In this document: one piece after another, positions 2,031-24,669 of the stretch
How positions within the stretch are numbered: the stretch's first letter is position 1
Layout: each line of letters begins with the position of its first letter
DNA from: Pseudomonadota bacterium
GTDB taxonomy: Bacteria; Desulfobacterota; Binatia; UBA1149
Direction of reading: 5' to 3'
Assembly: GCA_014382245.1 (NCBI GenBank)
Contig: JACNKC010000057.1
Location: forward strand, 174-64,173
Length of the DNA: 64,000 nt
Notes under the pieces: generated by a model
The model's input: only the letters and a program-made list of their open reading frames with translations
What the model was told of the DNA's origin: nothing
The model's database searches: none
Position numbers and translations under genes: made by a program

Positions 2031-4550
2031 CTAGGAATGCGCCTCCCTGGCTATGACTTCGTCCTGCAGTTCGCGGCCTATGCTGGTGAAGTAGGCGTTG
2101 TAGCCGGTGACGCGTACCAGCAGGTGGCGGTACTCGCCGGGGTTGAGCTGGGCGTCGCGCAGGGTGTCGGTGTCGATCACGTTGACCTGCAGGGCAGTGC
2201 CCCCGTTTTCGCAGTAGCCACGAAGAAACCCCTTGAACTTTTCGCGGTGCTCTGCGTCGCGCAGCAGCGATGGACTGAAGCTCATGGTATGGCTGGCGCC
2301 GTTGGGCAACGAGTTGCGGTAGTCCTGCCAATCTCCGTCGCTGCCCCGTCCACCCAGCGCCTGGCCAACCGAGTTGACGTTGGCCGTGGGGCCACTGGTA
2401 TCGGCGCCGTTGGACGGGCAAATGGCGTTGGACAGGAACCTGCCCCGCGGTCTTCCGTCGGCGCTCGCCGCCATGACGTAGCCGCCGTCCACCCAGTAGT
2501 TCCAGCTGAGCATGCCGGGACGAAAGCGCCGGCCGGTGCTGACCGTGCTGTGCTTCCAGGTTTCATCGGTCCACAGGTCCATCACGGCGCAGGCCATGGC
2601 GTCGGCCTCCTGTTGGTCGCGGCCGTACTTGGGCGCGCGCCAGCGGGCCCAGGCCTGCAGGGTCTCGTGCCCGTCCCAGTTGTCGCGCAGGGCCGCGGTC
2701 AGCTCCTCCATCGAGCACAGACCGCGGTCGTAGACCAGGTACTTTATCGCGCACAGCGAGTCCACGGTGGTGGCGAAGGTTACGCCCTCGAGCGTGGTAA
2801 GGTTGATCTCGGCGCCGCCGCGGGTGACGTCGGTGGCCGTTTCGGCGCAGCCGCCCACGAGGCAGGACAAGTAGGGCGTGGGGCTGAAGCGGGCGCGCAG
2901 GCTCTCGGTACGTTCGTAGAGGTCAACGCAACGTTGCACGATGAACTCGTTCTGCCTGCTGTAGGCCGCCCAGAAGTCTTCCCAGCGATCGAACTTCCCG
3001 GCGTCACCCGTGCGCGGGCCGTCTCGGCTGATTTCGCGGGACTCGCCGGTCACGGCGTCCATCGCGGGGGCGAGATCCTCGCCGCCTGTAAGCGCGAGTT
3101 CAACGGCCTTGAGCAGGTTGAGGTTACTGTCAACGGTTCCTGAACGGTCGTTGCCCACCATGGTGTTTTCCAGGCAGCCAACCGGCGCGTACTCGTGGAC
3201 GTTGTCCTCGTTTACGAGGTGCTGGTAGCCGGCCTCGGCGGCTTCGCGCATCATACCGGCCATGGATCTCTCGTCGAAGTTGAGCAGGAAGGGCGATCCG
3301 TGGCTGCGCGAGATCATGTCGACCACGGTGTCGAGCAGGCGGTTGGGAGAACCGCGGTGCAGCCGTACACTCGGCTTGGGCTCCAGTATGGGGCTCATCT
3401 CGTCGATGACCTCGAGGATGGCGTAGGTCAGGTCGTTGGTCGTGTCGACGCCCTCGGCTCCAATGCCCGAAAGCGTTATGAGCTGGCCGAAGCCGGAGGT
3501 GATTCCCTGGTTGCCGCCGATTTTTATCATGGCGTCGTAAGCCGTGTTGGCGTGTACCCAGAAGCAGCGCAGGATTTCTTTGCCGAACTCGCGATCCATT
3601 CCGTTCTCGATCGAGCGGCGCCAGCAGGGGTAGAGGTACTGGTCTACGCGGCCGAAGCTCAGGCCGGGGCCGGGGTAGTTTTCGTCGCTCATCACCAGCA
3701 TGTGGGTGAGCCACAGGGATTGTACTGCCTCCCAGAAGTTACGCGCGGGAAGCCAGGGCACGCGTTCCAGGTTGCGGGCCATGTTCTCGAGCTCCGCCCG
3801 GCGAGCCGGGTCGGCTTCGTCGCGGGCCTCGTCGCGGCAGCACCCGGCGTATTTTCCGGCCAATTCCCCGGGCATGAGAGCAGCAGTCATCATGGCGCGC
3901 AGTTGCGAGCCGGGTTGGCCGTTTTTAGCAGCGTGGTCGAGTGCGTCGTAGCGTTGTTCGAGGTCGCGGTGGATGGCTCCCCAGCCATGCTCGATCACCC
4001 GTGGGTAGTCGGGTAGCAAATGGCCGGAGGTAGCACCCGTGTTGCCGTAGCCGTGCTCGTGGAAATCCTTGATCGCGGCTCTCGTGCCGCGCGGGCCGTT
4101 GACCTCGGCATCGCGTCGACGGGCTTCCTCGCGGTTCCAGCAGCGCGAGGCGAGCAGGTTGAAGCGGGCCCCGGCTATGAGATCACCGGGCAGTATTTCC
4201 CGCGGCAACCTGTTGACCATTATTTCGCGGATCAGCCACGCGCGGCGCTCGGCGAGCCCCCGTTGCCAGAAGTCATCGGGCAGATCGACCCTGCGCGCAG
4301 CCTGCAGGGTGGAAGAGCGGAACGGTTGAAAGAACGCGTAGGTCTCCGGGACGATGTAGTAGGTGGTCTCGTCGTAGACCACGTCCCAGTCGGTACCGGT
4401 TGTCCAGCAACTGAACTCGTTGTTCCACTCGCGGTCTACGCCGCGAAAGTAGTAGTCGCGCAGCCACTGTGCGCGTGGGGACAACGCGCGGGGCGCGGGT
4501 ACAGCGGGTTGCTGTTCGCGGTGATTCGTTGCGTGTGCTGATCCTGCCAT
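2031..4550 (-). CDS. Glycyl-radical enzyme, PFL2 / eliminase-like class, substrate unassigned
   Basis: 839 aa. C-terminal glycyl-radical fingerprint LLVRVTGYNAYF (Gly816, nt 2103-2105). Thiyl loop APVGCLEN (Cys459 nt 3174-3176, Glu461). PFL2-type blocks NYPGPGLSFGRVDQYLYP and GGNQGITSGFGQLITLSG. SD AAGGAAA lies upstream of the ATG at 4550. Confidence 0.92.
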   Translation of the reverse strand: MAGSAHATNHREQQPAVPAPRALSPRAQWLRDYYFRGVDREWNNEFSCWTTGTDWDVVYDETTYYIVPETYAFFQPFRSSTLQAARRVDLPDDFWQRGLAERRAWLIREIMVNRLPREILPGDLIAGARFNLLASRCWNREEARRRDAEVNGPRGTRAAIKDFHEHGYGNTGATSGHLLPDYPRVIEHGWGAIHRDLEQRYDALDHAAKNGQPGSQLRAMMTAALMPGELAGKYAGCCRDEARDEADPARRAELENMARNLERVPWLPARNFWEAVQSLWLTHMLVMSDENYPGPGLSFGRVDQYLYPCWRRSIENGMDREFGKEILRCFWVHANTAYDAMIKIGGNQGITSGFGQLITLSGIGAEGVDTTNDLTYAILEVIDEMSPILEPKPSVRLHRGSPNRLLDTVVDMISRSHGSPFLLNFDERSMAGMMREAAEAGYQHLVNEDNVHEYAPVGCLENTMVGNDRSGTVDSNLNLLKAVELALTGGEDLAPAMDAVTGESREISRDGPRTGDAGKFDRWEDFWAAYSRQNEFIVQRCVDLYERTESLRARFSPTPYLSCLVGGCAETATDVTRGGAEINLTTLEGVTFATTVDSLCAIKYLVYDRGLCSMEELTAALRDNWDGHETLQAWARWRAPKYGRDQQEADAMACAVMDLWTDETWKHSTVSTGRRFRPGMLSWNYWVDGGYVMAASADGRPRGRFLSNAICPSNGADTSGPTANVNSVGQALGGRGSDGDWQDYRNSLPNGASHTMSFSPSLLRDAEHREKFKGFLRGYCENGGTALQVNVIDTDTLRDAQLNPGEYRHLLVRVTGYNAYFTSIGRELQDEVIAREAHS

Positions 4551-7600: not shown

Positions 7601-8848
7601 TCAGCGCAGGTTGGCCAGGTCGATGCTCTTGGGGAAAATCCCGCGGTTGGCGCGGTCGCGCTCCTCCAATCGCTCAATTTCAGCTTCGGGCAGGCCGGCT
7701 TCGGCCATCAGTTCACGGGCGTGCTCTCCTAGCACTGGAGAGGCTGAGCCCAGCCCGGGCTCCTGCCCGTCGAAGGCCAGCGGCGGTCGCGGCAAGCGGC
7801 AGCTTCCGCCCTCGGGGTGCTCGGCTTCGACCAGGGTGTTGCCGTGTCGGACCTGGGGATCCTCGTGAACGCGGTTCACCGGGTTCACCCGGGCCGAGGG
7901 CACGTCAAGCTCGTCGAGCAAGCGGCACAGCGATTCGGTGTCGCGGTCGGCGAGTACGGCGTCCATCTCCTCGGCCAGCTGCTGCCTGTTGGCCACGCGC
8001 CCCCCGAAATTGGCAAACCTGGGATCGGCGTGCAGCTGGCAGCCAAGCGCCTCGCACAGGGCGGCAAAGTCGCTGTCGACTATCAGTATGGTCGACACGT
8101 GGCCGTCGCTGGTGGCAAACAACGGGAAGTAATCGGCAAGTGCCCCCTGTTCGTTTATCTCGTCGCCCAGCAGGGTGTGCTGCCACATGGCGTCGGGCCA
8201 CAGGAAGTACAGCCCCGCGTCCATCATCGACACGGGCAGGAACTGGCCCCGGCCGGTACGCTCGCGCTGAAGCAGCGCTGCGGTTACGGCCTGGGCGGCC
8301 GTCATGCCCGAAACCTTGTCGAACAGCACTGTGCGCACGTTGGCCGGCCTGTCGCCGCCGCCCTGCGCCCCGGCCATGCCGATGGTGGCCTGTACCAGGG
8401 GATCGTACACGCGGCGGTGGACGTAGGGCCCCGACTGCCCGTAGCCAGTGATAGACCCGTAGACGAGGCGGGGATTGACGGCTGCCAGCGACTCGTAGTC
8501 GACACCCAGCTTTGCCGTGACCCCGGGGCGGTAGTTTTCGATAAGCACGTCGGCGGTTTCTACCAGACGCCGCAGGATGGCCGCGTCGTCTGCCTGCTTG
8601 AGGTCCAGGGCTATCGAGCGCTTGTTGCGGTTGAGCACCGAGAACTGTGCGGCGACCCCGTTCCGGTTGTTGCCCATGAAACGCGCGAGGTCACCGGTAC
8701 CCGGCGGCTCAACCTTGACCACGTCGGCGCCCTGGTCGGCCAGTATCATGCCGGCAAGCGGACCAGACACAGTGGAGGTGAGTTCGATGACGCGGTAGCC
8801 GGCCAGCGGCCCAGCGACGGTACGTTGACCATATCCTTTATTCGCCAT
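7601..8848 (-). CDS. Family III CoA-transferase (CaiB/BaiF family)
   Basis: The recognisable protein begins MANKGYGQRTVAGPLAGYRVIELTSTVSGPLAGMILADQGADVVKVEPPGTGD. The track ORF (to 9412) carries a 188-aa low-complexity extension that overlaps the divergent neighbour, so I trimmed it to the ATG at 8848. Confidence 0.85.
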   Translation of the reverse strand: MANKGYGQRTVAGPLAGYRVIELTSTVSGPLAGMILADQGADVVKVEPPGTGDLARFMGNNRNGVAAQFSVLNRNKRSIALDLKQADDAAILRRLVETADVLIENYRPGVTAKLGVDYESLAAVNPRLVYGSITGYGQSGPYVHRRVYDPLVQATIGMAGAQGGGDRPANVRTVLFDKVSGMTAAQAVTAALLQRERTGRGQFLPVSMMDAGLYFLWPDAMWQHTLLGDEINEQGALADYFPLFATSDGHVSTILIVDSDFAALCEALGCQLHADPRFANFGGRVANRQQLAEEMDAVLADRDTESLCRLLDELDVPSARVNPVNRVHEDPQVRHGNTLVEAEHPEGGSCRLPRPPLAFDGQEPGLGSASPVLGEHARELMAEAGLPEAEIERLEERDRANRGIFPKSIDLANLR

Positions 8849-8933
8849 GGGGGTAATATTTTGACTCGCCCACGCTGTGTCCAATCCCGAAAGTGGGTTA
8901 TCGGACGCTTCCCCCTTTTGATAGGGTTCGCGC

Positions 8934-10700
8934 ATGCTCCACGCGATTCCGGGTTGGCGCCAGCATAAGCTGGCTGTTTCGGTGATCTGCGTGGCTCTTA
9001 CCGCCGCTGCTGCTTGCACGCGGACACCGGCTACCACGGTGTTCGTGGCCCGTAGTGTTGTGACCATGGACCCGGCGAATCCACGGGCCGAGGCCGTGGC
9101 GGTGGCCGAGGGAAAGATCCTCGCGGTGGGCAGTCGCGAGGAGCTCTCGCCGCTGGCCGGCTGCAAGGGCTGCGTGATCGACAAGCGCTTTGCCGACGAT
9201 GTGCTGTTGCCCGGCTTCGTGGAGAACCACCTGCACCCCGACATGGCAGCCATGCTGCTGGCGTTACCGATAACGGCACCGTTTGACTGGGAACTGCCGG
9301 GCGGAACGATCAAGGGCATACGCGGCAGGCAGGCTTTTCTCGACAGGTTGCGCGAACTCGATGCCGCTCTTGGCGACGGCTCTCTTGAAGACGGTGGCCA
9401 GCCGCTGATCACCTGGGGCTACCACGATTTCTTTCACGGTGCGGGACTCGACCGAGACGCGCTCGACGCGGTGTCGACCACGCGCGCAGTGGTGGCCTGG
9501 CACCGTTCGTTTCACGAGGTCATAGCCAATTCGGTCGCGCTCGAGTGGATGGGAGTCACCCGCGAGACGGCGGCGCGGCTGCCCGGTGTCGCTTTGCGCG
9601 CAGACGGCGAGCCCACCGGCCGCCTGTCGGAGCTGGGGCTGCTGGTCGCGCTCGGTACGCTGTCCCCGGTGGTGCTGGGCGAAGAGGCCATGGATCGCGG
9701 TCACTCCATCGTGCGGCAGATGATACACCGCGGCGGCATCACCACGGTTGTCGACATGGCCTACGGCATGTTCAGCGACGAGCGCGAGTGGCCGATTCTC
9801 AAGCGCAACCTCGACCGCGACGACGTGCCTTTTCGCACCCGCCTGGTGCCTCTGCCCTTCGCCCTGGGACGCGAGTGGGGCGAGGATCTGTTCGACAGGG
9901 TAGAGGCCCTGCCGCAACGCAACAGTGAGCGCCTGGCCTTCGTGCGGCAGGTCAAGATGATAGGAGACGGCGCGTTCTTTTCCCTGTTGATGCGAATGCA
10001 ACCGCCGGGATACCTGGAGGGGGGAGTGGGCGAGTGGAACACCGAGCCGGGGCGCATGGTCGAGGGTCTCGCGCCCTGGTGGAAAGCGGGCTACCAGCTG
10101 CACGTGCACAGCAACGGCGACGCGGCCCAGGTGGCGGTGCTCGACGCGCTCGATCAGCTGCAGGCCGAGCACCCGCGAGAGGATCACCGCTTTACCTTTC
10201 ATCACTTTGCGCAGGCGCGCCCGAACGAGCTGGATCGCATGGCCGCGGCCGGTGCGTTGGTGTCAGCCAACGTGTACTACAACTACTTCATGGCCGACAT
10301 TTACGCCGAGCGCGGGCTTGGCCTGCCGCGCGCCGAGAAGATCACGCCGCTGGGGTCGCTGGTCAAGCGCGGGGTGAAGGTGTCGCTGCATTCCGACCTG
10401 CCCATGGGGCCGGCGCGCCCGCTGCTCGCGGCCTGGGCCGCTGCCACTCGGCTGACCCATGAAGGCAAGACCCGTGGCGCCGACGAGGCGCTTACCCCGG
10501 GGCAGGCCCTGCTCGCGATCACCAGCGACGCGGCCTACGCGGTGGGTATGGAAGACGAGGTTGGCAGCATACGAGTGGGCCTCAGGGCCGACTTCGTGGC
10601 GTTGCCCGACGATCCGTTGTCGGTGGAGCTAGACGAGTGGCCCAACATTATCCCGGTGGCCACCGTGCTCTCGGGTAAAGTTTACCCGGTCAGGCAATAG
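8934..10700 (+). CDS. Amidohydrolase family (amidohydrolase-3 / YtcJ-like) lipoprotein
   Basis: 588 aa. Signal with lipobox-like LTAAAAC. VVTMDPANPRAEAVAVAEGKILAVGS and LLPGFVENHLHP are metal-binding motifs typical of this family. Confidence 0.8.
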   Translation: MLHAIPGWRQHKLAVSVICVALTAAAACTRTPATTVFVARSVVTMDPANPRAEAVAVAEGKILAVGSREELSPLAGCKGCVIDKRFADDVLLPGFVENHLHPDMAAMLLALPITAPFDWELPGGTIKGIRGRQAFLDRLRELDAALGDGSLEDGGQPLITWGYHDFFHGAGLDRDALDAVSTTRAVVAWHRSFHEVIANSVALEWMGVTRETAARLPGVALRADGEPTGRLSELGLLVALGTLSPVVLGEEAMDRGHSIVRQMIHRGGITTVVDMAYGMFSDEREWPILKRNLDRDDVPFRTRLVPLPFALGREWGEDLFDRVEALPQRNSERLAFVRQVKMIGDGAFFSLLMRMQPPGYLEGGVGEWNTEPGRMVEGLAPWWKAGYQLHVHSNGDAAQVAVLDALDQLQAEHPREDHRFTFHHFAQARPNELDRMAAAGALVSANVYYNYFMADIYAERGLGLPRAEKITPLGSLVKRGVKVSLHSDLPMGPARPLLAAWAAATRLTHEGKTRGADEALTPGQALLAITSDAAYAVGMEDEVGSIRVGLRADFVALPDDPLSVELDEWPNIIPVATVLSGKVYPVRQ

Positions 10701-11751
10701 CAGCGGCAAGCGCGGCGGCGGCATCGGCCATGGCCTGGCGCGCCCCGCGGCTCACCTGGGTGGTGTTGGCAAAGCCGTGCACTTGGCCTTCGACACGGCA
10801 CAGCGTTACCGGCACTCCGGCCAGTTCGAGTCGCTCGGCGTATGCTTCGCCCTCGTCTCTGAGGGGGTCGAAGCCGGCCGTGGTGACGTAAGCCGGTGGC
10901 AGGCCCGAAAGGTCTTCTGCCAGCAGCGGCGAAGCCGAGGGGTCTTCGACGGCCTGCTGGCGGTCACCCGTGTAGTGGCGGATGTACCACTCCATCTGCG
11001 AGGCGGTCAGAAAAAAACCGTCGGCGAACAAGCGGTACGATTCGCTGCGGGCCGACAGGTCGGTGACCGGGTAGATTGGCAGCTGGAAGGCCGGCGAGGG
11101 TCCGCCGTCGCGCGTGGCGCGCAGCGAAACCGAGGCCGCCAGGTTGCCACCGGCGCTGTCGCCGCCAACCGCCACCCGCGATGCGTTGATGGCCAGGCGC
11201 TCGGCGTTTTCGAGCGCCCAGCGAAACGCCGCCAGGGCGTCGTCGGTCGCCGCCGGAAAGGGATGTTCGGGGGCCAGCCGGTAGTCCACCGATAATACCT
11301 TGACGCCGGCCTTCTCTGCGAGGAATCGGCAGGGCTGGTCATGGCTGTCGATGCTGCCCACCACCCATCCTCCACCGTGGTAGTAGACCAGCAGGCCGCC
11401 GCCATCGGCGCAAGCGTGGGGCACGTAGAGTCGCGCGGCGAGTTCGCCGTCCGCGCCAGCGCAGGAGAGTTCCTCGACGCGTTGCATGGCTATGGGTTCA
11501 CCGCTTGCGACAGCCGCGCCGCTTTCGATGTGCTGCCGTACCTCGGCCACGGTCAGGTCGTCGTATGATGGGTGATCGTCGAACGACATCGCGAGCAGCA
11601 GCAGTTGCACGTCTGCGTCCAGCGTGAGGCCATCCACGCGGGTGGAACTGCCACCGGCGAGCAGGAGCTGCAGGCGTTCGGGCAGAGCCATCATCGATCG
11701 CAGCAACAGGCGTTGGGCTTTTTCAGCGAGGCCGAGCGGGCGTGGTTCCAT
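10690..11751 (-). CDS. Alpha/beta hydrolase fold-3 esterase/lipase (hormone-sensitive-lipase family)
   Basis: HGGG oxyanion motif (VYYHGGGWVVGS) and GDSAGG nucleophile elbow. Start chosen at ATG 11751, 9 nt after a GGAGG SD; the track ORF starts at GTG 11775. The 3' end overlaps the convergent amidohydrolase by 11 nt. Confidence 0.85.
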   Translation of the reverse strand: MEPRPLGLAEKAQRLLLRSMMALPERLQLLLAGGSSTRVDGLTLDADVQLLLLAMSFDDHPSYDDLTVAEVRQHIESGAAVASGEPIAMQRVEELSCAGADGELAARLYVPHACADGGGLLVYYHGGGWVVGSIDSHDQPCRFLAEKAGVKVLSVDYRLAPEHPFPAATDDALAAFRWALENAERLAINASRVAVGGDSAGGNLAASVSLRATRDGGPSPAFQLPIYPVTDLSARSESYRLFADGFFLTASQMEWYIRHYTGDRQQAVEDPSASPLLAEDLSGLPPAYVTTAGFDPLRDEGEAYAERLELAGVPVTLCRVEGQVHGFANTTQVSRGARQAMADAAAALAAAIA

Positions 11752-11852
11752 GGTGGTCATCCTCCGCGGCAACACGATTACGATATCGCGGAGGGCGAGA
11801 CCAGGGCCGGCGGGTAGTTACATATCGGGGACAAGATGATAAAAGGCTTGGG

Positions 11853-12674
11853 GTGGAAGTTCTTCTTACAGGCGCGGCCCTCGGGGCCGAAGTAAGGGGG
11901 CTTGATCTCACCCGCGAATTGACGGGTACAGAGTTAGCAGCGGTGACGGCGGCGCTGGTCGAACACAAGGTGCTGTTTTTTCGCGACCAGCCTCTTGGGC
12001 CGGCCGACCACCACCGCTTTGCGTCATACTTCGGGCCGCTGCAACGCCACCCCGCGTTTCCGCACGTGGACGACTACCCCGAGCTCACCATACTCGAAAG
12101 CGACCGCGCGCGTCCTTCAAAAATAGACAAGTGGCACTGCGACATGACTTACCTCGAGTGCCCACCGCTGGGCAGCGTGCTCAGGGCTACCGTCATTCCT
12201 GACAAGGGCGGCGACACGATGTGGATGAATCTCGAGGCGGCCTGGCAGGCGCTGCCCCTGGACTTGCAGCAAAGGTTGGCCCAAATGCAGGCCGAGCACA
12301 GCTTTGCGCATGGCTACCGAGAGAGCCTGGCCGAACCCGGCGGCAGGGACCGTCTCGCGCGGGCCGTGGCCGACAACCCGCCCGTGCTGCACCCGGTGAT
12401 GCGTCGTCACCCGGTCAGCAAGCGGCCCTGCTTGTTCGTCAACAGCCTGTTCACCACGCGCCTGCTTGGCATGGAAGAACGCGAGAGCGAGCAACTGCTG
12501 GCGCGGCTGTACGCGCACATCGAGAAGCCGGAGTTTCGGTACCGCTTCAGTTGGGAGGTCGACTCGATCGCTTTCTGGGACAACCGAGCCACGCAGCATA
12601 AGCCGGTACAGGATTGGTGGCCGGCGCGGCGTTGTCACCAGCGCATTACCATAGAGGGCGACAGACCGGTGTGA
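11853..12674 (+). CDS. TauD/TfdA-family Fe(II)/2-oxoglutarate dioxygenase
   Basis: HxD facial-triad motif (KWHCDMTY) and a TauD-like N-terminus (GAEVRGLDL..). I chose the start at in-frame GTG 11853 because the track ORF begins at 11742, inside the divergent esterase. The start is uncertain. Confidence 0.75.
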   Translation: MEVLLTGAALGAEVRGLDLTRELTGTELAAVTAALVEHKVLFFRDQPLGPADHHRFASYFGPLQRHPAFPHVDDYPELTILESDRARPSKIDKWHCDMTYLECPPLGSVLRATVIPDKGGDTMWMNLEAAWQALPLDLQQRLAQMQAEHSFAHGYRESLAEPGGRDRLARAVADNPPVLHPVMRRHPVSKRPCLFVNSLFTTRLLGMEERESEQLLARLYAHIEKPEFRYRFSWEVDSIAFWDNRATQHKPVQDWWPARRCHQRITIEGDRPV

Positions 12675-14904: not shown

Positions 14905-16653
14905 CTACTTTGCCTGCAGCGCGAGGTCCTCGATGTCGTTGGTAGAGGCAGCCGACAAGCGGGCGAGCGCAGCCGTGTCGCCAGCCAGTGCTGCGTCGAA
15001 AAAATTGAGCAGCAGGTAGTTGATGATGTCGTGGCCGTGGCGCCAGGGCAGGTGCAGGGGCGAGCATGCGTCGCCGTCACCGGTGAGCAGGTTACCCAGC
15101 GGCCCCGGTATGTCGCAGGCGTGGCTGAAAGCCAGGTGGCCGCCGTCCAGCAGGGTGCCCAGTGCCGTGAAGGGAGCGTTGGCCGGCAGGTTGTCGAAGG
15201 GGCGCTGCTGGTTGTCGGCCAGGGGCGTAGTCTGGTCGAGCGTACCTGCCATCAACATTGTGGGAACGGTGATTCCCGTGAAGAAGGCGTCGTCAAACAT
15301 GAAAGCCGCCGGCGCCAGTGGGGCTATGGCTTTCACCCGCGTGTCGGTGAAGGTTCCGCCGAAGGGGTCAATTTCAAAGCCAGCCACGATGAGCGGCTCG
15401 TCGTAGAAAAAGGCGCCGCCGGCGATCGCCAGGGTCGTGTATCCGCCGAACGAATGGCCGCTCATGCCTATGCGTGTCGCGTCGATGGCGCCTTCGAGAA
15501 AGTCCCCGGGCGTGGCGTTGGCCGCCAGCAGTTCATCGAGCAGGAAGCTGATGTCCACGGGGCGATTGACGGCCGAATCAAAATCAACGACCCCGTTGAG
15601 CAGGTCGGGCAGGGTGTTGCCGTGGTGGTCGGGGGAAGCCACCACGTAGCCGTGGCTGGCGAGGTGGGTGACGAGGTAGATAGACTGGTTGCGCGTACCC
15701 GCGAAGCCGTGCGAGAACACCAGCAAGGGAAAGCTGCCGGTCGCCATGGCCACGTCGCGGTAGGCGGGAGAGGGTGGCATCTGTCCGCCCATCAGCGTGG
15801 TAGCATCCAGTGGTATACCGGCGGTGGCCGCTGCAGTTGAGGGGTAGAACAGTTCCACGGCGACCGGCCTCGCGGACAGTCCATCGACGTCGAGCCGGGA
15901 GACGTCCGCCATCTGCAAGGTGGTGACTCCCACCGGCCACTGGCCGAGCGCAGCCGTGGCATCGAGATCGTTGGGCGGGTAAGTCGCTTGTGCGTAGTGG
16001 CGCCAGCGCGTCAGCAGCGAGTCGACGAAGGCGGCCGTGCGCTCGCCGATGTCGACTCCCGGCGCGCTCACAACAGCGTCGAGATCGTCGCCACAGGACC
16101 GGGAGGCGCGATCTACGGCCCACTGCCTCCGGTCGGCCACGGCCAGGTCCCGCGCAAGCCTGTCGCAGCCACTCCCCGTGTAGTTCACAAGCAGGCAGTC
16201 GCGACCCGTGGTTTGCACCAGGCGGTCGGCCAGTTTACCGGCCACGCGGGCCAGTCGGTTGCGGCAGCGCAGCTGCTTGCGCGAAAGCAGCGAGTCGTCG
16301 ACTGCGCGGATGGTGTCGTCGAGCTCAGTGGCGTAGGTGGTGCAGGTGCGGGGTACCTGCGAGGCCATGTTGACGAGTCCGGGGTATCCCAGTGCCCAGG
16401 CGTCGTCGTCGTCGCAGTTGTCGGTGACGGCACGGCGAGTGCGCAGCAGGATGTTACCCTCGCTGCTCCCCCGCCGCCGGGATCGATTCGCCCGTTTGAG
16501 GCAGCGCTCGGCTTCCCTGCCCGAGCTGCTGACGCAGGTGGCGGTATCGGCGCCAGCGGGCCCCGGGGGCAGCAACAAGGCCGCCGTCAGCAGGGCCACG
16601 GCAATTGCCGTGGCAGGAACGATCGCCGCCTGTTGGTAGTAAGAGCAGGTCAT
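14905..16653 (-). CDS. Secreted alpha/beta hydrolase (PAF-acetylhydrolase-like) with an N-terminal Cys-containing domain of unknown function
   Basis: C-terminal half has LLVFSHGFAGTRN and GMSGHSFGG (GxSxG). Start placed at ATG 16653, which gives signal peptide MTCSYYQQAAIVPATAIAVALLTAALLL. The track ORF starts at 16716. Confidence 0.7.
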   Translation of the reverse strand: MTCSYYQQAAIVPATAIAVALLTAALLLPPGPAGADTATCVSSSGREAERCLKRANRSRRRGSSEGNILLRTRRAVTDNCDDDDAWALGYPGLVNMASQVPRTCTTYATELDDTIRAVDDSLLSRKQLRCRNRLARVAGKLADRLVQTTGRDCLLVNYTGSGCDRLARDLAVADRRQWAVDRASRSCGDDLDAVVSAPGVDIGERTAAFVDSLLTRWRHYAQATYPPNDLDATAALGQWPVGVTTLQMADVSRLDVDGLSARPVAVELFYPSTAAATAGIPLDATTLMGGQMPPSPAYRDVAMATGSFPLLVFSHGFAGTRNQSIYLVTHLASHGYVVASPDHHGNTLPDLLNGVVDFDSAVNRPVDISFLLDELLAANATPGDFLEGAIDATRIGMSGHSFGGYTTLAIAGGAFFYDEPLIVAGFEIDPFGGTFTDTRVKAIAPLAPAAFMFDDAFFTGITVPTMLMAGTLDQTTPLADNQQRPFDNLPANAPFTALGTLLDGGHLAFSHACDIPGPLGNLLTGDGDACSPLHLPWRHGHDIINYLLLNFFDAALAGDTAALARLSAASTNDIEDLALQAK

Positions 16654-16869
16654 GCTGCAGCCGTTTCGTGCGTGCCAGGGTCGGGCGGTGCGACGCCGGG
16701 CCACGGGCAGGAGCATGACCCACCGGGCGGAGGCTTGTCAAGGTTGTATCGTTAGGTGGTGGGTGGCTTTGTTGCCTTTACCGCCAATGAAGGTGACATT
16801 CTCCTGGCCGGGTATATTCCGGGTACCCGGGTCGCGAGCTCACGTGGCCCGGCGCAACTGGGGGAGCAC

Positions 16870-17865
16870 GTGGAGTATGCAGTAGTAGTCGGGGGAGGGC
16901 AGGTCGAGCAGGAAGGGCACGGCCTGGAGGCCTTTGTTGGGCAGGCCCAGCTGGCCGAGTCGCTGGGTTATACGACCGTCTTCGTGCCCGACCATTATCT
17001 TTTTGAACAGATGGGCGAGCTCAAGACCGAGCAGCCAACCTACGAGTTGTTTGCGCTGCTTGGTGCCATCGCCCAGCGCACGCGCAGCATCAAGCTGGGC
17101 AGCCACGTGGCCTGCACGCTGTTTCGTCACCCGGCCATGCTCGCTCGCCAGTTTGCCCAGCTCGACGAGCTCAGTGGAGGTCGCGTGATTGCCGGCGTGG
17201 GTGCGGGCTGGACGAGGTCCGAGTTCGAGATGTTCGGACTGGACTTTCCGCCGGTGTCCGAGCGCCTGCGTATGATGGACGAGGCGGTGGAGATCATGCA
17301 GGCACTGTGGACCGGCGAGCCCTGCAGTTTTGACGGCGAGCACTATCGCCTGCGCGACGCCGTGGCCAGGCCGACCCCGACGCAACAGCCGCGACCACCG
17401 CTGATGCTGGGCGGCGGTGGCAAGGGCATACTCCGGCGCGCCGGGCGCTGGGCCGACATCCTCCACATGGTGCCCGAGATCGGCAAGGCCGGTACGACCA
17501 CGATGGAGAACGTGTCCGCCTTTCACGACGACGTGGTGGCAGAAAAGCTAGCACTGGTGCGAGAGGAGGCCAAGGATGCCGGCCGGCCGGACGGTGCCGT
17601 GCGCTACGCTACGACGATTTTCGTTTACCAGCCCGCCGACAGTGAGAAGCAGGCCGCCGAGACCGCCGAGGGCGCGGCTGCCATGTTCGGGCTCACGGCC
17701 GAGCAGTTCTGCCGTCACCCGGCCGTGCTCGCGGGAACTACCGATCAGATGGTCGAGGAACTGCAGCGTCGTGAGCGCGTGCACGGATTGTCCATCGTTG
17801 CGCTGGAGGCGACCGGGCTCGACAGTATCCGCAATTTCGCCGAGCGTATAATCGCCAACGGCTAA
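16870..17865 (+). CDS. Luciferase-like (LLM class) flavin/F420-dependent oxidoreductase
   Basis: AESLGYTTVFVPDHYLF.., GAGWTRSEFEMFG and the overall LLM layout. Start set at GTG 16870 after GGGGAG; the track ORF starts at 16756. The start is uncertain. Confidence 0.75.
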   Translation: MEYAVVVGGGQVEQEGHGLEAFVGQAQLAESLGYTTVFVPDHYLFEQMGELKTEQPTYELFALLGAIAQRTRSIKLGSHVACTLFRHPAMLARQFAQLDELSGGRVIAGVGAGWTRSEFEMFGLDFPPVSERLRMMDEAVEIMQALWTGEPCSFDGEHYRLRDAVARPTPTQQPRPPLMLGGGGKGILRRAGRWADILHMVPEIGKAGTTTMENVSAFHDDVVAEKLALVREEAKDAGRPDGAVRYATTIFVYQPADSEKQAAETAEGAAAMFGLTAEQFCRHPAVLAGTTDQMVEELQRRERVHGLSIVALEATGLDSIRNFAERIIANG

Positions 17866-20981: not shown

Positions 20982-22244
20982 TCAGTCCTCACCCGCGGCC
21001 TCGGCGTCAAATTCAATGTACATCTCTTTTACGCCCGAGATGAAATTGGACACCAGCTGACGGTGCTCGCCCAGCAGGCGGGGGTTGCGCAGGCGCGGTA
21101 TCATTTCTTCGAACATAACGGTCAGCTCCTTGCGCGCCAGGTGTGAGCCCAGGCAGAAGTGCTGGCCTATGCCGAAGGTGCGGTGCTCGCTTTTGAGCTC
21201 GGGCATACGCTGCGCGCGGGTCACGTCGAAGGCTTCCGAATCGGGTCCGAACACCGACTGCTCGTGGTTGGCCGAAGGGTAATACATGCGCAGGATGTCG
21301 CCTTTTTTTACCTGCTTGTCGCCCACGGTGACGTCGCGGGTGGCGGTGCGCTGCATGTAGTTGAAGGACGGATGATAGCGCAGGATTTCTTCTACCGCGC
21401 CTGGTATCAGCGAGGGGTCGTCTACCAGCAGTTGCAGTTGCTCGGGGTGCTCGATGAGCAGGCGCATGCCCTGGCTGGTGGCCGTTCTCGTGGTCTCGAT
21501 TCCGCCGGCGATCAGTATCAGGAAGAAGGCGCAAAACTCGAATTCGTCGAGGGCCTCGCCTTCGACCACGCCGTTGAGCAGGGCGTCGAGCACGGTGCCC
21601 TCCCTGGGATTGGTCTTGTGCTCGGCGGCCAGGCCCATGGCGATTTCGAACAGGCGCGCTGCAGCCAACTGGCCGTCTTCCGAGCTCACGTTGAGCTCGG
21701 GGTCGTCCATGCCGATCATCACGTCCACCAGGTCCGAGAATTCCTTGCGTTTTTCTGAGGGCATTTCCATGAGTGCGCAGATGACGAACAAGGGCATCTC
21801 GGCAGCCACCTCCGAGGCGAACTCGCAGCGTCCCCTCGCCGCGATCTTGTCGATGATCTCGCGGGCGCGTTCTCGCATCATGGGCTCGAGCGCATCGACA
21901 GCGCGCAAGGTGAAGGCGTTGCGTACAACCTTGCGGTACTGGTTGTGGTCGGGGGGATCCATGTTGATGATCAGCCGCCGCATGATTTCCTGCTCTGCCG
22001 GGTCGTCGCCGGCGGGATGCGGGTGCGCCATGTTTATCGACGACGAGAACAGGCCGGGGTTCTTGGAGACAAAATCTATCTCCTCTCGCCTGGTGAGCGC
22101 CCAGAACTCGCCCGAGTGCTCGGTCGCATCCTGCCTTGAGACCGGGCACTGGCTCCTGAGCGTGGCCAGGTCTTCAAACGGTATGCCGTGGCTCATGCGC
22201 TCGGGGTCCATGAGGTTGAACTGGTAGGGGCATTCGTCGTTCAT
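20982..22244 (-). CDS. Cytochrome P450
   Basis: Heme-thiolate motif FGIGQHFCLGSHLA, I-helix AGGIETTRTA, and ExxR (EEILRY). 420 aa. Confidence 0.92.
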   Translation of the reverse strand: MNDECPYQFNLMDPERMSHGIPFEDLATLRSQCPVSRQDATEHSGEFWALTRREEIDFVSKNPGLFSSSINMAHPHPAGDDPAEQEIMRRLIINMDPPDHNQYRKVVRNAFTLRAVDALEPMMRERAREIIDKIAARGRCEFASEVAAEMPLFVICALMEMPSEKRKEFSDLVDVMIGMDDPELNVSSEDGQLAAARLFEIAMGLAAEHKTNPREGTVLDALLNGVVEGEALDEFEFCAFFLILIAGGIETTRTATSQGMRLLIEHPEQLQLLVDDPSLIPGAVEEILRYHPSFNYMQRTATRDVTVGDKQVKKGDILRMYYPSANHEQSVFGPDSEAFDVTRAQRMPELKSEHRTFGIGQHFCLGSHLARKELTVMFEEMIPRLRNPRLLGEHRQLVSNFISGVKEMYIEFDAEAAGED

Positions 22245-22330: not shown

Positions 22331-23569
22331 ATGGCTGACCTGCTTTTCACCAACGCGACCGTGCTCGACCTGGTCGCGGGCGAGCCGCGGCCAGGAATGA
22401 CCGTGCGCTGCGAGGGCGAACGCATAGTCGAGCTGACTGAGAGGGGCGCCCGGGCTGCCGGCGGCGACCTGCGCAGTATCGACTGCCGCGGTCGCACGCT
22501 GATGCCCGGTCTCATCGACGCCCACGTGCACGCGTCCATCACCACGCTCGACCTTTCCTCCATGCAGAACAAGCCGGCCACCCTGGTGGCTCACGAGGCC
22601 GCTGCGGTGTTGGGCGGTATGCTTGACCGTGGTTTTACCACCGTGCGCGACGCCGGCGGCAGCGACTGGGGCCTGGCCCAGGCCGTGGACAAGGGGCTGG
22701 TAAGGGGCCCGAGGATTTTTTACTCGGGCAGGGTGCTCAGCCAGACCGGCGGCCATGGCGATTTCCGTCCACGCACCGATGACGTGCCCGTCTGCGCGTG
22801 CAGCATTTATTCCGGCGGTTTTTCGCACGTGGCAGATGGCGTAACGGCGGTGAGAAAAGCGGCGCGCGAGGAGCTGCGGCGTGGCGCTACGCAGGTCAAG
22901 ATCATGGCCTCTGGCGGTGTGGCTTCGCCTACCGACCCGGTGTGGAACGTCCAGTACTCGCCCGAGGAAATGCGCGCCATAGTCGAGGAGGCCCGGGGCT
23001 GGCGCACTTATGCCATGGCCCACGCCTACACGCCCGAGGCTGTGACCCGGGCCGTTCAAGCCGGCGTGCGCACCATTGAGCACGGCAACCTGATAGACGC
23101 TGACACGGCGAGGTTGATGGCCGAACACGGTGCCTTCCTGGTTCCCACGCTGGTCATCTACCACGCGGCTGCCGAGACGGGTAGGCAGTTCGGTTTTCCC
23201 GAGACGAGTATGCGTAAGCTCGACGACGTGCTGCAAGCCGGTACGCGTTCATTGGAGCTCGCCCGCGAAGCTGGTGTAGAGATGGGCTTTGGCACCGACC
23301 TGCTGGGCGAAGTACACGACCAGCAGCTGCGCGAGTTCAGCTTGCGCGCCGAGGTGCTGCCGCCGATCGAAGTGCTGAGGTCGGCCACCACGGTGAACGC
23401 CCGTATACTCGACCGCGAGGGCGAGCTGGGAGTAGTGGCCGAGGGGGCGCTGGCTGACTTGCTGCTGGTGGACGGCAACCCGCTCGATGACCTGTCGTTG
23501 TTCGCCGACCCGTCCCGCGTACCGCTGGTAGTAAAGGCAGGGCAGGTGGCCGTGGAGAGGGACGCCTGA
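22331..23569 (+). CDS. Amidohydrolase-family metallo-hydrolase
   Basis: MADLLFTNATVLD.., RTLMPGLIDAHVHA (HxH), and the KIMASGG region. ATG 22331 is preferred over the TTG at 22325. Confidence 0.85.
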   Translation: MADLLFTNATVLDLVAGEPRPGMTVRCEGERIVELTERGARAAGGDLRSIDCRGRTLMPGLIDAHVHASITTLDLSSMQNKPATLVAHEAAAVLGGMLDRGFTTVRDAGGSDWGLAQAVDKGLVRGPRIFYSGRVLSQTGGHGDFRPRTDDVPVCACSIYSGGFSHVADGVTAVRKAAREELRRGATQVKIMASGGVASPTDPVWNVQYSPEEMRAIVEEARGWRTYAMAHAYTPEAVTRAVQAGVRTIEHGNLIDADTARLMAEHGAFLVPTLVIYHAAAETGRQFGFPETSMRKLDDVLQAGTRSLELAREAGVEMGFGTDLLGEVHDQQLREFSLRAEVLPPIEVLRSATTVNARILDREGELGVVAEGALADLLLVDGNPLDDLSLFADPSRVPLVVKAGQVAVERDA

Positions 23570-24669
23570 TGGGCACCGCGCCGAGGGGCTGCCGGCTGAC
23601 GACGGAAGGCGGTCTACCACTGCTGGTCGAGCCCGAACTGCCGGGGGCTGGCGAATTGGGCAAAAGCGAAGCCGCCGGTGGCGGCGTAGCTACGGCCGTG
23701 GGTCTGGCCGCTTGGCTCAGCGAGAACAGCGACTGGGTGCAGGCGCGCCTGCTGGAGCACGGCGCGCTGTTATTCCGTGGCTTTCGGGTTACCGCCGCAC
23801 CCGACTTTGAGTCCGTGGCGCGCGCGTTAGAGCCCGAACTTGGCACCGAGTATCTCGGCACTTCGCCACGCGAGCCGCTTCAGGGTAGCCGCTACGTGTT
23901 TTCGGCAAGTGAGCTGCCCTCGCATTATCCCATCGCCCAGCACGCCGAGATGAGCTTCGTGGCCAGGCCACCGCGACGCTTGTTTTTTTGTTGCTTCCAG
24001 GAGCCCGCCGATGGCAGTGGTGAAACCCCGGTCACGGATTTGCGCAGGGTCTGGAGTGAGCTCGACGCTGATCTCAAGCGGCGGCTGCTGGCCGGCGGCC
24101 TGCGCATAGTGCGCAACTACTGCGGCCCGGCGGCGAAATCGCGCAGCCCGTTCCAACTCAAGGGCTGGCACGAGATGTTTGGCACCACCGATCGAGGGGC
24201 GGTGGAGACAAAGTGCCGCCTGGAGGGCTTCGAAGTGAGCTGGCTCGAGGGCGACGCGCTGCGCCTGGTCCACACCCAGTCGCTTGTGCGCGACCATTCC
24301 GACACCGGCGAAACCGCGTGGCACAATCACCTGCAGGTCTTTCATCTATCCTCGGCCGCCGGTGAATACCGACGTATTTTCGCCTTGCGACCCACGTTGC
24401 GTAACTTTGCGGTCTGGCAGTTGGCGCGTTTGCTTACCTTGCTGCAGCGCCTGACACGCAGCAGTGAAGAGCAGGCTATGCACTGCACACGTCTCGATGG
24501 TGGTGAGATTGCGACCGCCGACGTGGAGGCGGTGCGCGACGCCATCTGGCGCAACATGGTGGTGACGCCGTGGCGACTTGGCGACGTCCTGGTGATCGAC
24601 AACCAGTCTACGGCGCACGGTAGGTTGCCTTACCGAGGCCGTCGCGAAATCGCCGTGGCCTGGGCTTGA
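23569..24669 (+). CDS. Clavaminate-synthase-like / TauD-family Fe(II)/2OG dioxygenase
   Basis: HxE motif (AQHAEMSF) and distal His (STAHGRLPY). The start shares one nt with the upstream stop (TGATG), indicating translational coupling. Confidence 0.75.
   Translation: MGTAPRGCRLTTEGGLPLLVEPELPGAGELGKSEAAGGGVATAVGLAAWLSENSDWVQARLLEHGALLFRGFRVTAAPDFESVARALEPELGTEYLGTSPREPLQGSRYVFSASELPSHYPIAQHAEMSFVARPPRRLFFCCFQEPADGSGETPVTDLRRVWSELDADLKRRLLAGGLRIVRNYCGPAAKSRSPFQLKGWHEMFGTTDRGAVETKCRLEGFEVSWLEGDALRLVHTQSLVRDHSDTGETAWHNHLQVFHLSSAAGEYRRIFALRPTLRNFAVWQLARLLTLLQRLTRSSEEQAMHCTRLDGGEIATADVEAVRDAIWRNMVVTPWRLGDVLVIDNQSTAHGRLPYRGRREIAVAWA

Follow-up and report, generated by a model that had tools for sequence, protein, structure and literature searches.

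Glycyl radical enzymes (GREs) carry out difficult anaerobic chemistry, and newly assigned GRE clades have each revealed a pathway (i.e., choline to trimethylamine, hydroxyproline, isethionate to H2S, and anhydroglycolysis). Here we describe a GRE gene in a 64,000-nucleotide (nt) stretch of DNA from a Binatia lineage (positions 174 to 64,173 of contig JACNKC010000057.1, assembly GCA_014382245.1; referred to here as the window), together with the adjoining genes and its relatives in other genomes. All GRE eliminases and isomerases retain a Cys-x-Glu (CXE) motif in which the Glu is hydrogen bonded to a substrate hydroxyl; in glycerol dehydratase (GDH), Glu435 deprotonates the C1 hydroxyl and His164 protonates the departing C2 hydroxyl (PMC13450708). 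The decarboxylase HPAD also carries CXE (Cys503/Glu505), and every GRE accessory subunit known so far is either a HiPIP-like [4Fe-4S] or a rubredoxin-like protein (PMC13450708).

The window GRE shares the catalytic residues of GDH, has a different substrate pocket, and belongs to a clade in which a small split-barrel protein accompanies the enzyme and its activase. On balance, and with somewhat better than even confidence, we favor a new-clade eliminase or isomerase-type GRE that would cleave C-O bonds, would be activated by the adjacent activase, would use Gly816, Cys459, Glu461, and His177, and would work with a clade-specific split-barrel partner.

Catalytic residues, substrate pocket, and clade

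The GRE open reading frame (ORF) encodes a protein identical to MBC8292490.1, with a ribosome-binding-site-like AAGGAAA 9 nt ahead of its ATG. It matches Pfam PFL-like (PF02901; residues 173 to 684; E = 3.7e-109) and Gly_radical (PF01228; residues 708 to 822; E = 4.1e-21), i.e., a barrel catalytic domain followed by a C-terminal glycyl radical domain with the RVxG[FWY] motif of the superfamily. A preliminary description, made from the letters of the window alone, had singled out Cys459-Leu-Glu461 in APVGCLEN and Gly816 in RVTGY. Both placements are exact: APVGCLEN spans residues 455 to 462, with CLE at residues 459 to 461 (nt 3168 to 3176; TGCCTGGAA), and translation of the minus strand puts RVTGY at residues 813 to 817 (nt 2100 to 2114). 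Because the ORF matches both PFL-like and Gly_radical, these motifs are not chance matches, and both the Cys loop and the Gly loop are invariant among 120 homologs. The sequence RVTGYNAYF is found throughout the clade, with Thr preceding and Asn following the Gly-Tyr pair, and GDH, HypD, IslA, CutC, YbiW, and PflD have R[VI]AGYS. By its domains and motifs, the ORF is an intact GRE, with formation of a radical predicted.

Residues were aligned using HMMER (the window GRE and a 28-sequence family profile against solved GREs) and using MAFFT with Escherichia coli YbiW and PflD added. The residue-level comparison covers GDH, HypD, CutC, IslA, YbiW, and PflD; 1,2-propanediol dehydratase (PD), HpsG, HPAD, PhdB, IAD, and BssA were compared by profile hidden Markov model scores only. 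Cys459 lies on the Cys-loop position of the solved GREs, and the pair Cys459/Glu461 aligns with C433/E435 of GDH, C434/E436 of HypD, C489/E491 of CutC, and C468/E470 of IslA, as well as with the corresponding pair of IseG (HMMER). Glu461 does therefore occupy the eliminase position, in agreement with the proposal that the enzyme is of the eliminase or decarboxylase type. The accompanying proposal that it is not a formate-lyase also holds, given that G-C-L-E stands in place of a Cys-Cys pair and that the NCBIfam PFL model (TIGR01255) gives 71 bits against a cutoff of 994. His177, which is invariant in the family, aligns with His164 of GDH, His160 of HypD, and a His in both YbiW and PflD. This is the position, after beta-strand 1, of the general-acid His of the C-O-cleaving subclass, and the alignment makes His177 the predicted general acid. 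The C-N lyase CutC has Asp (Asp216) at this position, and Gln193 of the C-S lyase IslA is placed there only by extrapolation, one residue past the aligned block.

Regarding family models, the window GRE falls far short of every NCBIfam equivalog model, HpfG included. It scored 346 bits with HypD (NF043068; cutoff, 1,100), 340 with HpsG (NF048011; 1,000), 279 with CutC (TIGR04394; 1,050), and, with IAD and HPAD (NF033718 and NF033715), 209 (1,100) and 162 (1,150), respectively; the PFL2-3 subfamily model gave 378 bits (678). In a profile search of the Protein Data Bank (PDB), the eliminases ranged from 329 to 371 bits (CutC, 371; IseG, 337; IslA, 329), while BSS and MasD (206 to 208) and HPAD (159) were among the weakest. 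The best single-sequence PDB match was HypD (6VXC; E = 2e-77), and the Foldseek neighbors of an AlphaFold2 model of the GRE were PD (top), HypD, CutC, and GDH, all at 21 to 23% identity. That model was of moderate quality and was built from a shallow alignment of 28 close relatives; because its active-site loops are unreliable, pocket geometry was assessed from sequence alone. Given the alignment of His177 with the general acid of dehydratases and the higher scores of the eliminase models (HypD, HpsG, and CutC versus IAD and HPAD), the eliminase/isomerase option is, as judged from these alignments and scores, much better supported than the decarboxylase option.

The preliminary description had recognized the pocket of no characterized member. 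This is borne out residue by residue for GDH, HypD, CutC, IslA, YbiW, and PflD, and at the level of models for HpsG, HpfG, HPAD, and IAD (162 to 340 bits; cutoffs, 1,000 to 1,150). All glycerol-binding residues of GDH are replaced (H281/S282 by P295/G296, D447 by V473, and Y640 by L681). For HypD, D278 corresponds to G294/P295, F340 to L357, Y450 to N476, and T645 to W683, and the change of S334 to T351 is conservative. N476 and W683 also take the places of CutC Y506 and GDH S642, respectively, and L681 is identical to HypD L643 (V680 in IslA). For CutC, Asp216 is replaced by His177 and Tyr506 by Asn476, and Thr502 is kept as T472, the sole match among the substrate-binding positions compared. 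The sulfonate triad of IslA, IseG, and HpsG (IslA R189, Q193, and R678) is likewise missing; the counterparts are A173 (by extrapolation beyond the aligned block), H177 (from the extrapolated ungapped block), and G679. The GDH/YbiW loop ESN--GHS, which carries the positions of GDH H281/S282 and HypD D278, is replaced by a longer family-specific loop, and a signature hairpin is shortened (Table 1). In the loop that follows the Cys, the polar or charged residues D468, R469, S470, and D474 are invariant in the family. The two catalytic loops themselves are generic for the eliminase half of the superfamily; the interest lies in the clade and in its partner protein.

The 120 best homologs (67 to 74% identity; approximately 839 amino acids [aa]) are unnamed or carry generic names. 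When one genome was scanned for each GTDB species, at least 585 genomes encoded relatives. The best 80 (64 to 72% identity) came from Binatia, Myxococcota, Syntrophales, Desulfobacterales (including a Desulfosudis oleivorans metagenome-assembled genome), Spirochaetota/Leptospirales, Anaerolineae, Bacteroidales, Gemmatimonadota, and others. Against 1.84 billion representative sequences, the family was reduced to a single representative of full length (63% identity). Alignments from the N terminus were obtained for a few sister clades (34 to 49%), and all remaining representatives (36% or less) aligned only from approximately residue 171. Phylogenetic placement by neighbor joining (134 GREs; 604 columns; 50 bootstraps) recovered the core family in 50 of 50 replicates and a superclade, from which GDH, HypD, IslA, CutC, YbiW, and PflD were absent, in 49 of 50. 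Literature searches found no publication on this clade and, for Hxd3 and for glycerol kinase with hydroxyacetone, nothing relevant; a 2026 review of GREs, according to which whole clades remain without validation, names no such enzyme (PMC13450708). A limonene GRE, a benzene cluster, and Pelobacter Pcar_0937 were considered and set aside as different systems or as having no established link to the clade. Clade members (P0006, P0059, P0078, P0406, and others) bear the public names formate C-acetyltransferase, pyruvate formate-lyase, trans-4-hydroxy-L-proline dehydratase, and benzylsuccinate synthase alpha subunit; these names are unsupported by model cutoffs or pocket residues.

In several sister clades (P0242 [L169:260-2794], P0244 [L171:6753-9182], P0247, P0252, and P0260), the catalytic Cys, the glycine loop, or both have been lost. 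In P0242, GFHE and FGQK replace the usual Cys and Gly motifs, and P0244 stops short of the Gly domain, yet an activase and an iron-type alcohol dehydrogenase (Fe-ADH) adjoin it. Such proteins may be pseudo-enzymes or noncanonical radical enzymes. Another sister GRE, P0246, looks active (44% identity, with GH, VGCLENT, and RVTGYNAYF all intact). Its contig is apparently archaeal (L084, with TFIIB), its neighbors are an acetolactate-synthase/Xsc-like thiamine-diphosphate enzyme and an alpha/beta hydrolase, and it has no activase nearby.

Conserved module and split-barrel partner

Gene order was compared by clustering ORFs over 83 related loci, of which 65 whose sequence extended 2.3 kb or more downstream were taken as complete. 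Only four genes, all on one strand, were conserved across the 83 loci, namely, those for a GntR/FadR-type regulator, the GRE, the activase, and a PNPOx-like protein (here, the partner). The regulator gene was directly upstream of the GRE gene in 39 loci; the partner was present in all 65 complete loci, and activase and partner followed in order in 63 of them. The gap between the GRE and activase genes had a median of 11 nt (10 nt in the window), and the median identities to the window proteins were 67% (GRE), 43% (activase), and 40% (partner). Neither an HPAD-type HiPIP-like gamma subunit gene or other small Fe-S gene nor the beta/gamma small-subunit genes of X-succinate synthases appeared in the module in this clustering. 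The GRE module is self-contained.

The ORF next to the GRE (914 to 2020) is a cognate activase. It scores 277 bits with TIGR02494 (cutoff, 174), carries the CX3CX2C motif as CSLECTWC (residues 40 to 47; nt 1880 to 1903) followed by a Cys-rich ferredoxin-like insert, and does not reach the cutoff of the BssD-type model TIGR04003 (170 bits; cutoff, 496). The best PDB matches of the regulator are FadR proteins (Rv0494, E = 4e-20; E. coli FadR, E = 1e-14), and its NCBIfam scores for NanR, LldR, FadR, PdhR, and GlcC are alike and far below the cutoffs. These matches suggest, not decisively, an acyl-CoA or carboxylate effector.

Across the clade, the partner is a protein of approximately 290 aa with a tandem FMN (flavin mononucleotide)-binding-type split barrel and without a Cys cluster motif, which places it in the PNPOx-like superfamily. 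Its more than 714 homologs are all named hypothetical or "PNPOx family." Proteins of this fold bind differing cofactors (FMN, flavin adenine dinucleotide, F420, or heme). Literature searches found no link between GREs and PNPOx-like proteins, and this protein is a type of GRE partner not known before.

Two sister lineages bear on the role of the partner. P0242, the paralog with Phe in place of the catalytic Cys and an altered Gly loop, has a partner homolog directly downstream (7-nt overlap; 33% identity; E = 6e-46), and no activase was seen in the 259 nt upstream and 7 kb downstream that its contig covers. The partner motif MFRYNAYFGIH, otherwise invariant, is degenerate in this lineage. P0248, an active sister-clade GRE, is adjoined by a single-domain partner homolog. 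Because P0242 keeps the partner with no activase in view and P0248 adjoins a homolog, the partner appears tied to the GRE rather than to the activase, and it is most likely a clade-specific subunit or a tightly coupled flavoprotein of the GRE rather than a reductase of the activase. A role as the electron donor of the activase had been suggested by the ATGA overlap of the two genes and by fold likeness to an FMN-binding protein of Desulfovibrio. The Cys-less P0242 counted against this role, its partner being retained immediately behind it without a visible activase.

Gene neighborhoods and features of the window

A gene for glycerol kinase (GlpK; 688 bits; equivalog cutoff, 590) is directly upstream of the GRE gene in six main-family loci (L014, L018, L022, L026, L030, and L031) from Syntrophaceae and related Deltaproteobacteria, and in three of these six an L-lactate MFS transporter (448 bits; cutoff, 320) follows the partner. 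The Syntrophaceae-type GlpK loci also hold an SCP2 protein and an M24/creatinase-like protein, and L026 contains a glyoxylate/hydroxypyruvate-reductase-like dehydrogenase. The sister-clade GRE P0248 (L086; 41% identity; motifs intact) lies within a classical anaerobic glycerol/glycerol-3-phosphate cluster consisting of GlpK (728 bits; cutoff, 590), GlpA-like DAO/Fer2_BFD, Pyr_redox, DUF1667, a stand-alone NAD_Gly3P_dh_C, and DUF4125. A metagenome scan with P0248 found two close relatives only (L087 and L088), neither with glycerol genes, so the sister-clade link to glycerol is a single locus. AFOR and Fe-ADH genes adjoin the module in a few Desulfobacterales loci. In a Pfam census that covered 264 neighboring ORFs, none more than 3 kb from the module, over the 83 loci, FGGY was found four times and AFOR, ECH, MFS, and PlsC-type acyltransferases three times each. 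Because no other family was enriched, the neighborhood does not define a pathway. We regard a glycerol-derived or other C3 hydroxy compound as at best a tentative candidate for the substrate, the hint being recurrent but thin; plain GDH function is unlikely because the glycerol-binding residues of GDH are not conserved.

The coordinates of the GRE, its motifs, and other features of the window are listed in Table 1. The EbdA-like gene ends 16 nt upstream of the GRE start and is probably cotranscribed with it in this organism. No beta or gamma subunit gene adjoins the EbdA-like gene, the next genes being those for a CoA-transferase III and an amidohydrolase. As a general functional partner, the molybdoenzyme was rejected, with a homolog near the GRE in only 1 of the 83 related loci. 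The CoA-transferase III ORF (7601 to 9412, minus strand; 603 aa) matches its family only from residue 203, and its N-terminal extension shares about 480 nt with the opposite-strand amidohydrolase ORF (8934 to 10700, plus strand). Translation probably starts near nt 8830 instead (MANKGYG...).

TABLE 1 Features of the GRE locus and its surroundings in the window
Feature	Position (nt)	Strand	Basis or remark
Partner, tandem split barrel (PNPOx-like), 300 aa	15-917	-	Sole family match PNPOx_N; ATG overlaps activase stop (ATGA)
GRE-activating radical S-adenosylmethionine (SAM) enzyme, 368 aa	914-2020	-	TIGR02494; Pfam Radical_SAM, Fer4_12
GRE ORF, 839 aa	2031-4550	-	ORF list; Pfam PFL-like and Gly_radical; homologs at 64 to 74% identity
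Glycine loop RVTGYNAYF, residues 813-821; Gly816, radical site	2088-2114	-	Translation, family alignment
Signature barrel strand FRPGMLSWNYW, residues 676-686, invariant in family	2493-2525	-	Family alignment
Extended Cys-loop signature VGCLENTMVGNDRSGTVD, residues 457-474	3129-3182	-	Holds T472 (CutC T502 position) and V473 (GDH D447 position)
Cys459-Leu460-Glu461, thiyl-radical Cys and CXE Glu	3168-3176	-	Alignment to solved GREs
Signature hairpin NQGITSGFGQL, residues 347-357	3480-3512	-	Two residues shorter than in all six references; family scan pattern
Family-specific loop DENYPGPG, residues 289-296	3663-3686	-	Two residues longer than GDH/YbiW ESN--GHS loop
His177, predicted general acid for leaving group	4020-4022	-	Alignment; invariant in family
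Type II DMSO-reductase-family alpha subunit, EbdA-like, Tat signal, 970 aa	4567-7479	-	TIGR03479, 797 bits; EbdA model, 552 bits
HSL-type esterase/lipase (Abhydrolase_3)	10690-11775	-	6 to 12 kb from GRE (both hydrolases)
PAF-acetylhydrolase/chlorophyllase-like hydrolase	14905-16716	-	6 to 12 kb from GRE (both hydrolases)
Four O2-dependent enzymes	11742-12674, 23569-24669, 20982-22244, 16756-17865	+, +, -, +	

The O2-dependent enzyme types in the window are two TauD-type dioxygenases, a cytochrome P450, and a luciferase-like monooxygenase; these neighbors suggest a facultative organism (65% G+C) that needs to protect or switch the oxygen-sensitive GRE. Beyond the two hydrolases of Table 1, there are genes for an acyl-CoA dehydrogenase, a thiolase-like protein, an AMP-binding ligase, and a carboxyltransferase. 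Lipid and acyl-CoA genes are thus plentiful in the region.

Proposed reaction, alternatives, and comparison with known systems

In the reaction that we favor, the adjacent radical SAM activase would take the pro-S hydrogen of Gly816, generating a glycyl radical, and the radical would move from Gly816 to Cys459 in turnover. His177 would then protonate an O-linked leaving group on the neighboring carbon, so that the C-O bond would be broken, resulting in a dehydration or in the opening or removal of the O-linked group. The resulting alpha-carbonyl radical would finally regain a hydrogen from Cys459.

Several points weigh against this interpretation. The assignment of His177 and Glu461 comes from sequence alignment at about 22 to 30% identity, and the AlphaFold2 model has a pLDDT (predicted local distance difference test) below 50 at residues 347 to 352, 470 to 472, 686 to 723, and 814 to 839, i.e., at the active-site loops and the Gly loop. 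The conserved His is also compatible with other leaving groups. The link to glycerol comes from two lineages only, the neighbors are unrelated in most loci, and the window has no GlpK, regulator, or lactate transporter gene. Flavin binding by the partner would follow from its fold only, and, because the contig of P0242 reaches only 259 nt upstream of the gene, an activase may lie farther upstream.

The same radical logic could serve a 1,2-eliminase with a non-oxygen leaving group, i.e., a C-N, C-S, or C-P lyase whose substrate would be an amino alcohol, a sulfonate, or a phosphonate/phosphate ester. CXE is common to C-O, C-N, and C-S eliminases, T472 is shared with CutC (T502), the invariant residues D468, R469, S470, and D474 could bind a charged group, and a phosphate ester (e.g., glycerol-3-phosphate) would likewise suit the adjacency to GlpK. 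We nevertheless consider this reading unlikely: the discriminating position is His, as in GDH, HypD, YbiW, and PflD, and not Asp (CutC) or Gln (IslA); the sulfonate residues of IslA are unmatched (R678 by G679 and, by extrapolation, R189 by A173); and the CutC, HpsG, and HpfG equivalog models all failed. An arylacetate-type decarboxylase (HPAD-, IAD-, PAD-, or AAD-like) was left open in the preliminary description and shares the CXE motif, as seen in HPAD Cys503/Glu505 (PMC13450708), but it is very improbable. The decarboxylases show the lowest similarity among PFL2-type enzymes (IAD, 209, and HPAD, 162 bits, versus HypD, 346, HpsG, 340, and CutC, 279 bits; in the PDB profile search, HPAD, 159, versus eliminases, 329 to 371 bits), a HiPIP-like small-subunit gene is missing from the module, His177 aligns with the dehydratase His, and the census of the 83 loci contained no aromatic amino acid fermentation genes.

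Some relatives are publicly named trans-4-hydroxy-L-proline dehydratase or formate C-acetyltransferase, a glycerol dehydratase would agree with the GlpK and Fe-ADH neighbors seen in a few loci, and the top Foldseek matches are PDs, all of which would suit a divergent ortholog of a known enzyme (GDH or PD, HypD, CutC, IslA/HpsG, or YbiW/PflD). There is little to recommend this view once the scores and residues are considered: the equivalog models failed 3- to 7-fold in bits, and the PFL2-3 subfamily model failed as well (378 < 678); GDH H281, S282, D447, and Y640 are replaced, and HypD D278, Y450, and T645 are not conserved; and the clade stood apart from all six references in 49 of 50 bootstraps (PD was compared by model scores only). 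As for a fumarate-adding X-succinate synthase or a formate-lyase, one relative is named benzylsuccinate synthase alpha subunit, and hydrocarbon and lipid genes are numerous in the organism of the window, where the EbdA-like enzyme adjoins the GRE. However, this neighbor is not conserved, there is no Cys-Cys pair, PFL reached 71 bits against a cutoff of 994, BSS and MasD reached 206 to 208 bits against 329 to 371 bits for the eliminases, beta/gamma subunit genes are missing from the module, and the activase fell short of the BssD cutoff (170 versus 496 bits); we give this option next to no credence.

Beyond the favored C-O-cleaving eliminase or isomerase, it is a speculative, though not far-fetched, possibility that the tandem split-barrel protein represents a new class of obligate GRE subunit. 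The enzyme would then be the first flavin- or heme-linked GRE and might perform chemistry unseen in the superfamily, e.g., a C-O cleavage that is redox coupled or of the phosphate/ether kind, with a lipid head-group compound derived from glycerol (e.g., glycerol-3-phosphate or a glyceryl ether) as the substrate. Hundreds of environmental lineages would then use it, among them facultative aerobes (e.g., Binatia and Myxococcota).

The clade is an attractive target for study. Its members occur in no fewer than 585 species genomes, spread over Desulfobacterota, Myxococcota, Binatia, Spirochaetota, Chloroflexota, Bacteroidota, and others; its GRE (64 to 74%) is far more conserved than its activase (about 43%); its module is compact and self-contained; and its partner has a fold never linked to GREs before. 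If the substrate were identified, a widespread gap in the anaerobic carbon cycle of sediments and soils would be closed, possibly one that concerns the turnover of glycerol or lipid head groups, and the partner could reveal a new control or coupling of glycyl radical chemistry. The analysis also corrects misleading public names (formate C-acetyltransferase, HypD, and benzylsuccinate synthase).

Among the described systems, B12-independent GDH (Clostridium butyricum DhaB1; PDB 1R8W) and PD (PDB 5I2A/5I2G and 9RCO) have the fold and length class of the window GRE and are its top structural neighbors. The catalytic Cys, the CXE Glu, and the general-acid His of GDH (His164; His177 in the window) all align; an activase with a ferredoxin-like insert adjoins GDH/PD, as at the window locus; and the GlpK and Fe-ADH or AFOR neighbors of glycerol/diol pathways are matched in a few clade loci. 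The differences are that identity is about 22%, that the clade is separate from GDH (49 of 50 bootstraps), and that clade loci have no dhaT-type operon or microcompartment. Furthermore, the substrate residues of GDH are replaced, two pocket loops differ by a 2-residue insertion and a 2-residue deletion, and GDH/PD have no PNPOx-like partner. The trans-4-hydroxy-L-proline dehydratase HypD (PDB 6VXC) gave the best equivalog score, and its Cys434, Glu436, and His160 align, as do S334 (T351) and L643 (L681). In contrast, that score is only 346 of the 1,100 bits required, the amine-binding Asp278, Tyr450, Thr645, and Phe340 are not conserved, and the census of clade loci found no proline-pathway neighbors.

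YbiW and PflD, which are anhydrohexitol-6-phosphate ring-opening isomerases, have CXE and the His at the same position, and the clade GRE could, like them, break a C-O bond with no water being lost overall. They differ in their low identity, in the pocket strand and loops, in belonging to a separate clade, and in their neighbors, no phosphotransferase system, aldolase, or phosphatase genes being found at clade loci. The choline trimethylamine-lyase CutC and the isethionate/DHPS sulfite-lyases IslA, IseG, and HpsG share the CXE eliminase scaffold (profile scores: CutC, 371; IseG, 337; IslA, 329 bits) and, for CutC, T502 (T472), whereas CutC Asp216 and IslA Gln193 stand where the clade GRE has His, IslA R678 is replaced by G679, and CutC Tyr506 is replaced by N476.

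With regard to the partner, the nearest precedents are the accessory subunits of HPAD (gamma), BSS (beta and gamma), and MASS (beta, gamma, and delta), which are likewise small proteins encoded and conserved with a GRE and its activase. By analogy, the split-barrel protein is possibly a subunit that modulates the GRE. Unlike these Fe-S HiPIP-like or rubredoxin-like subunits (PMC13450708), the clade partner is a tandem split barrel without a Cys cluster.

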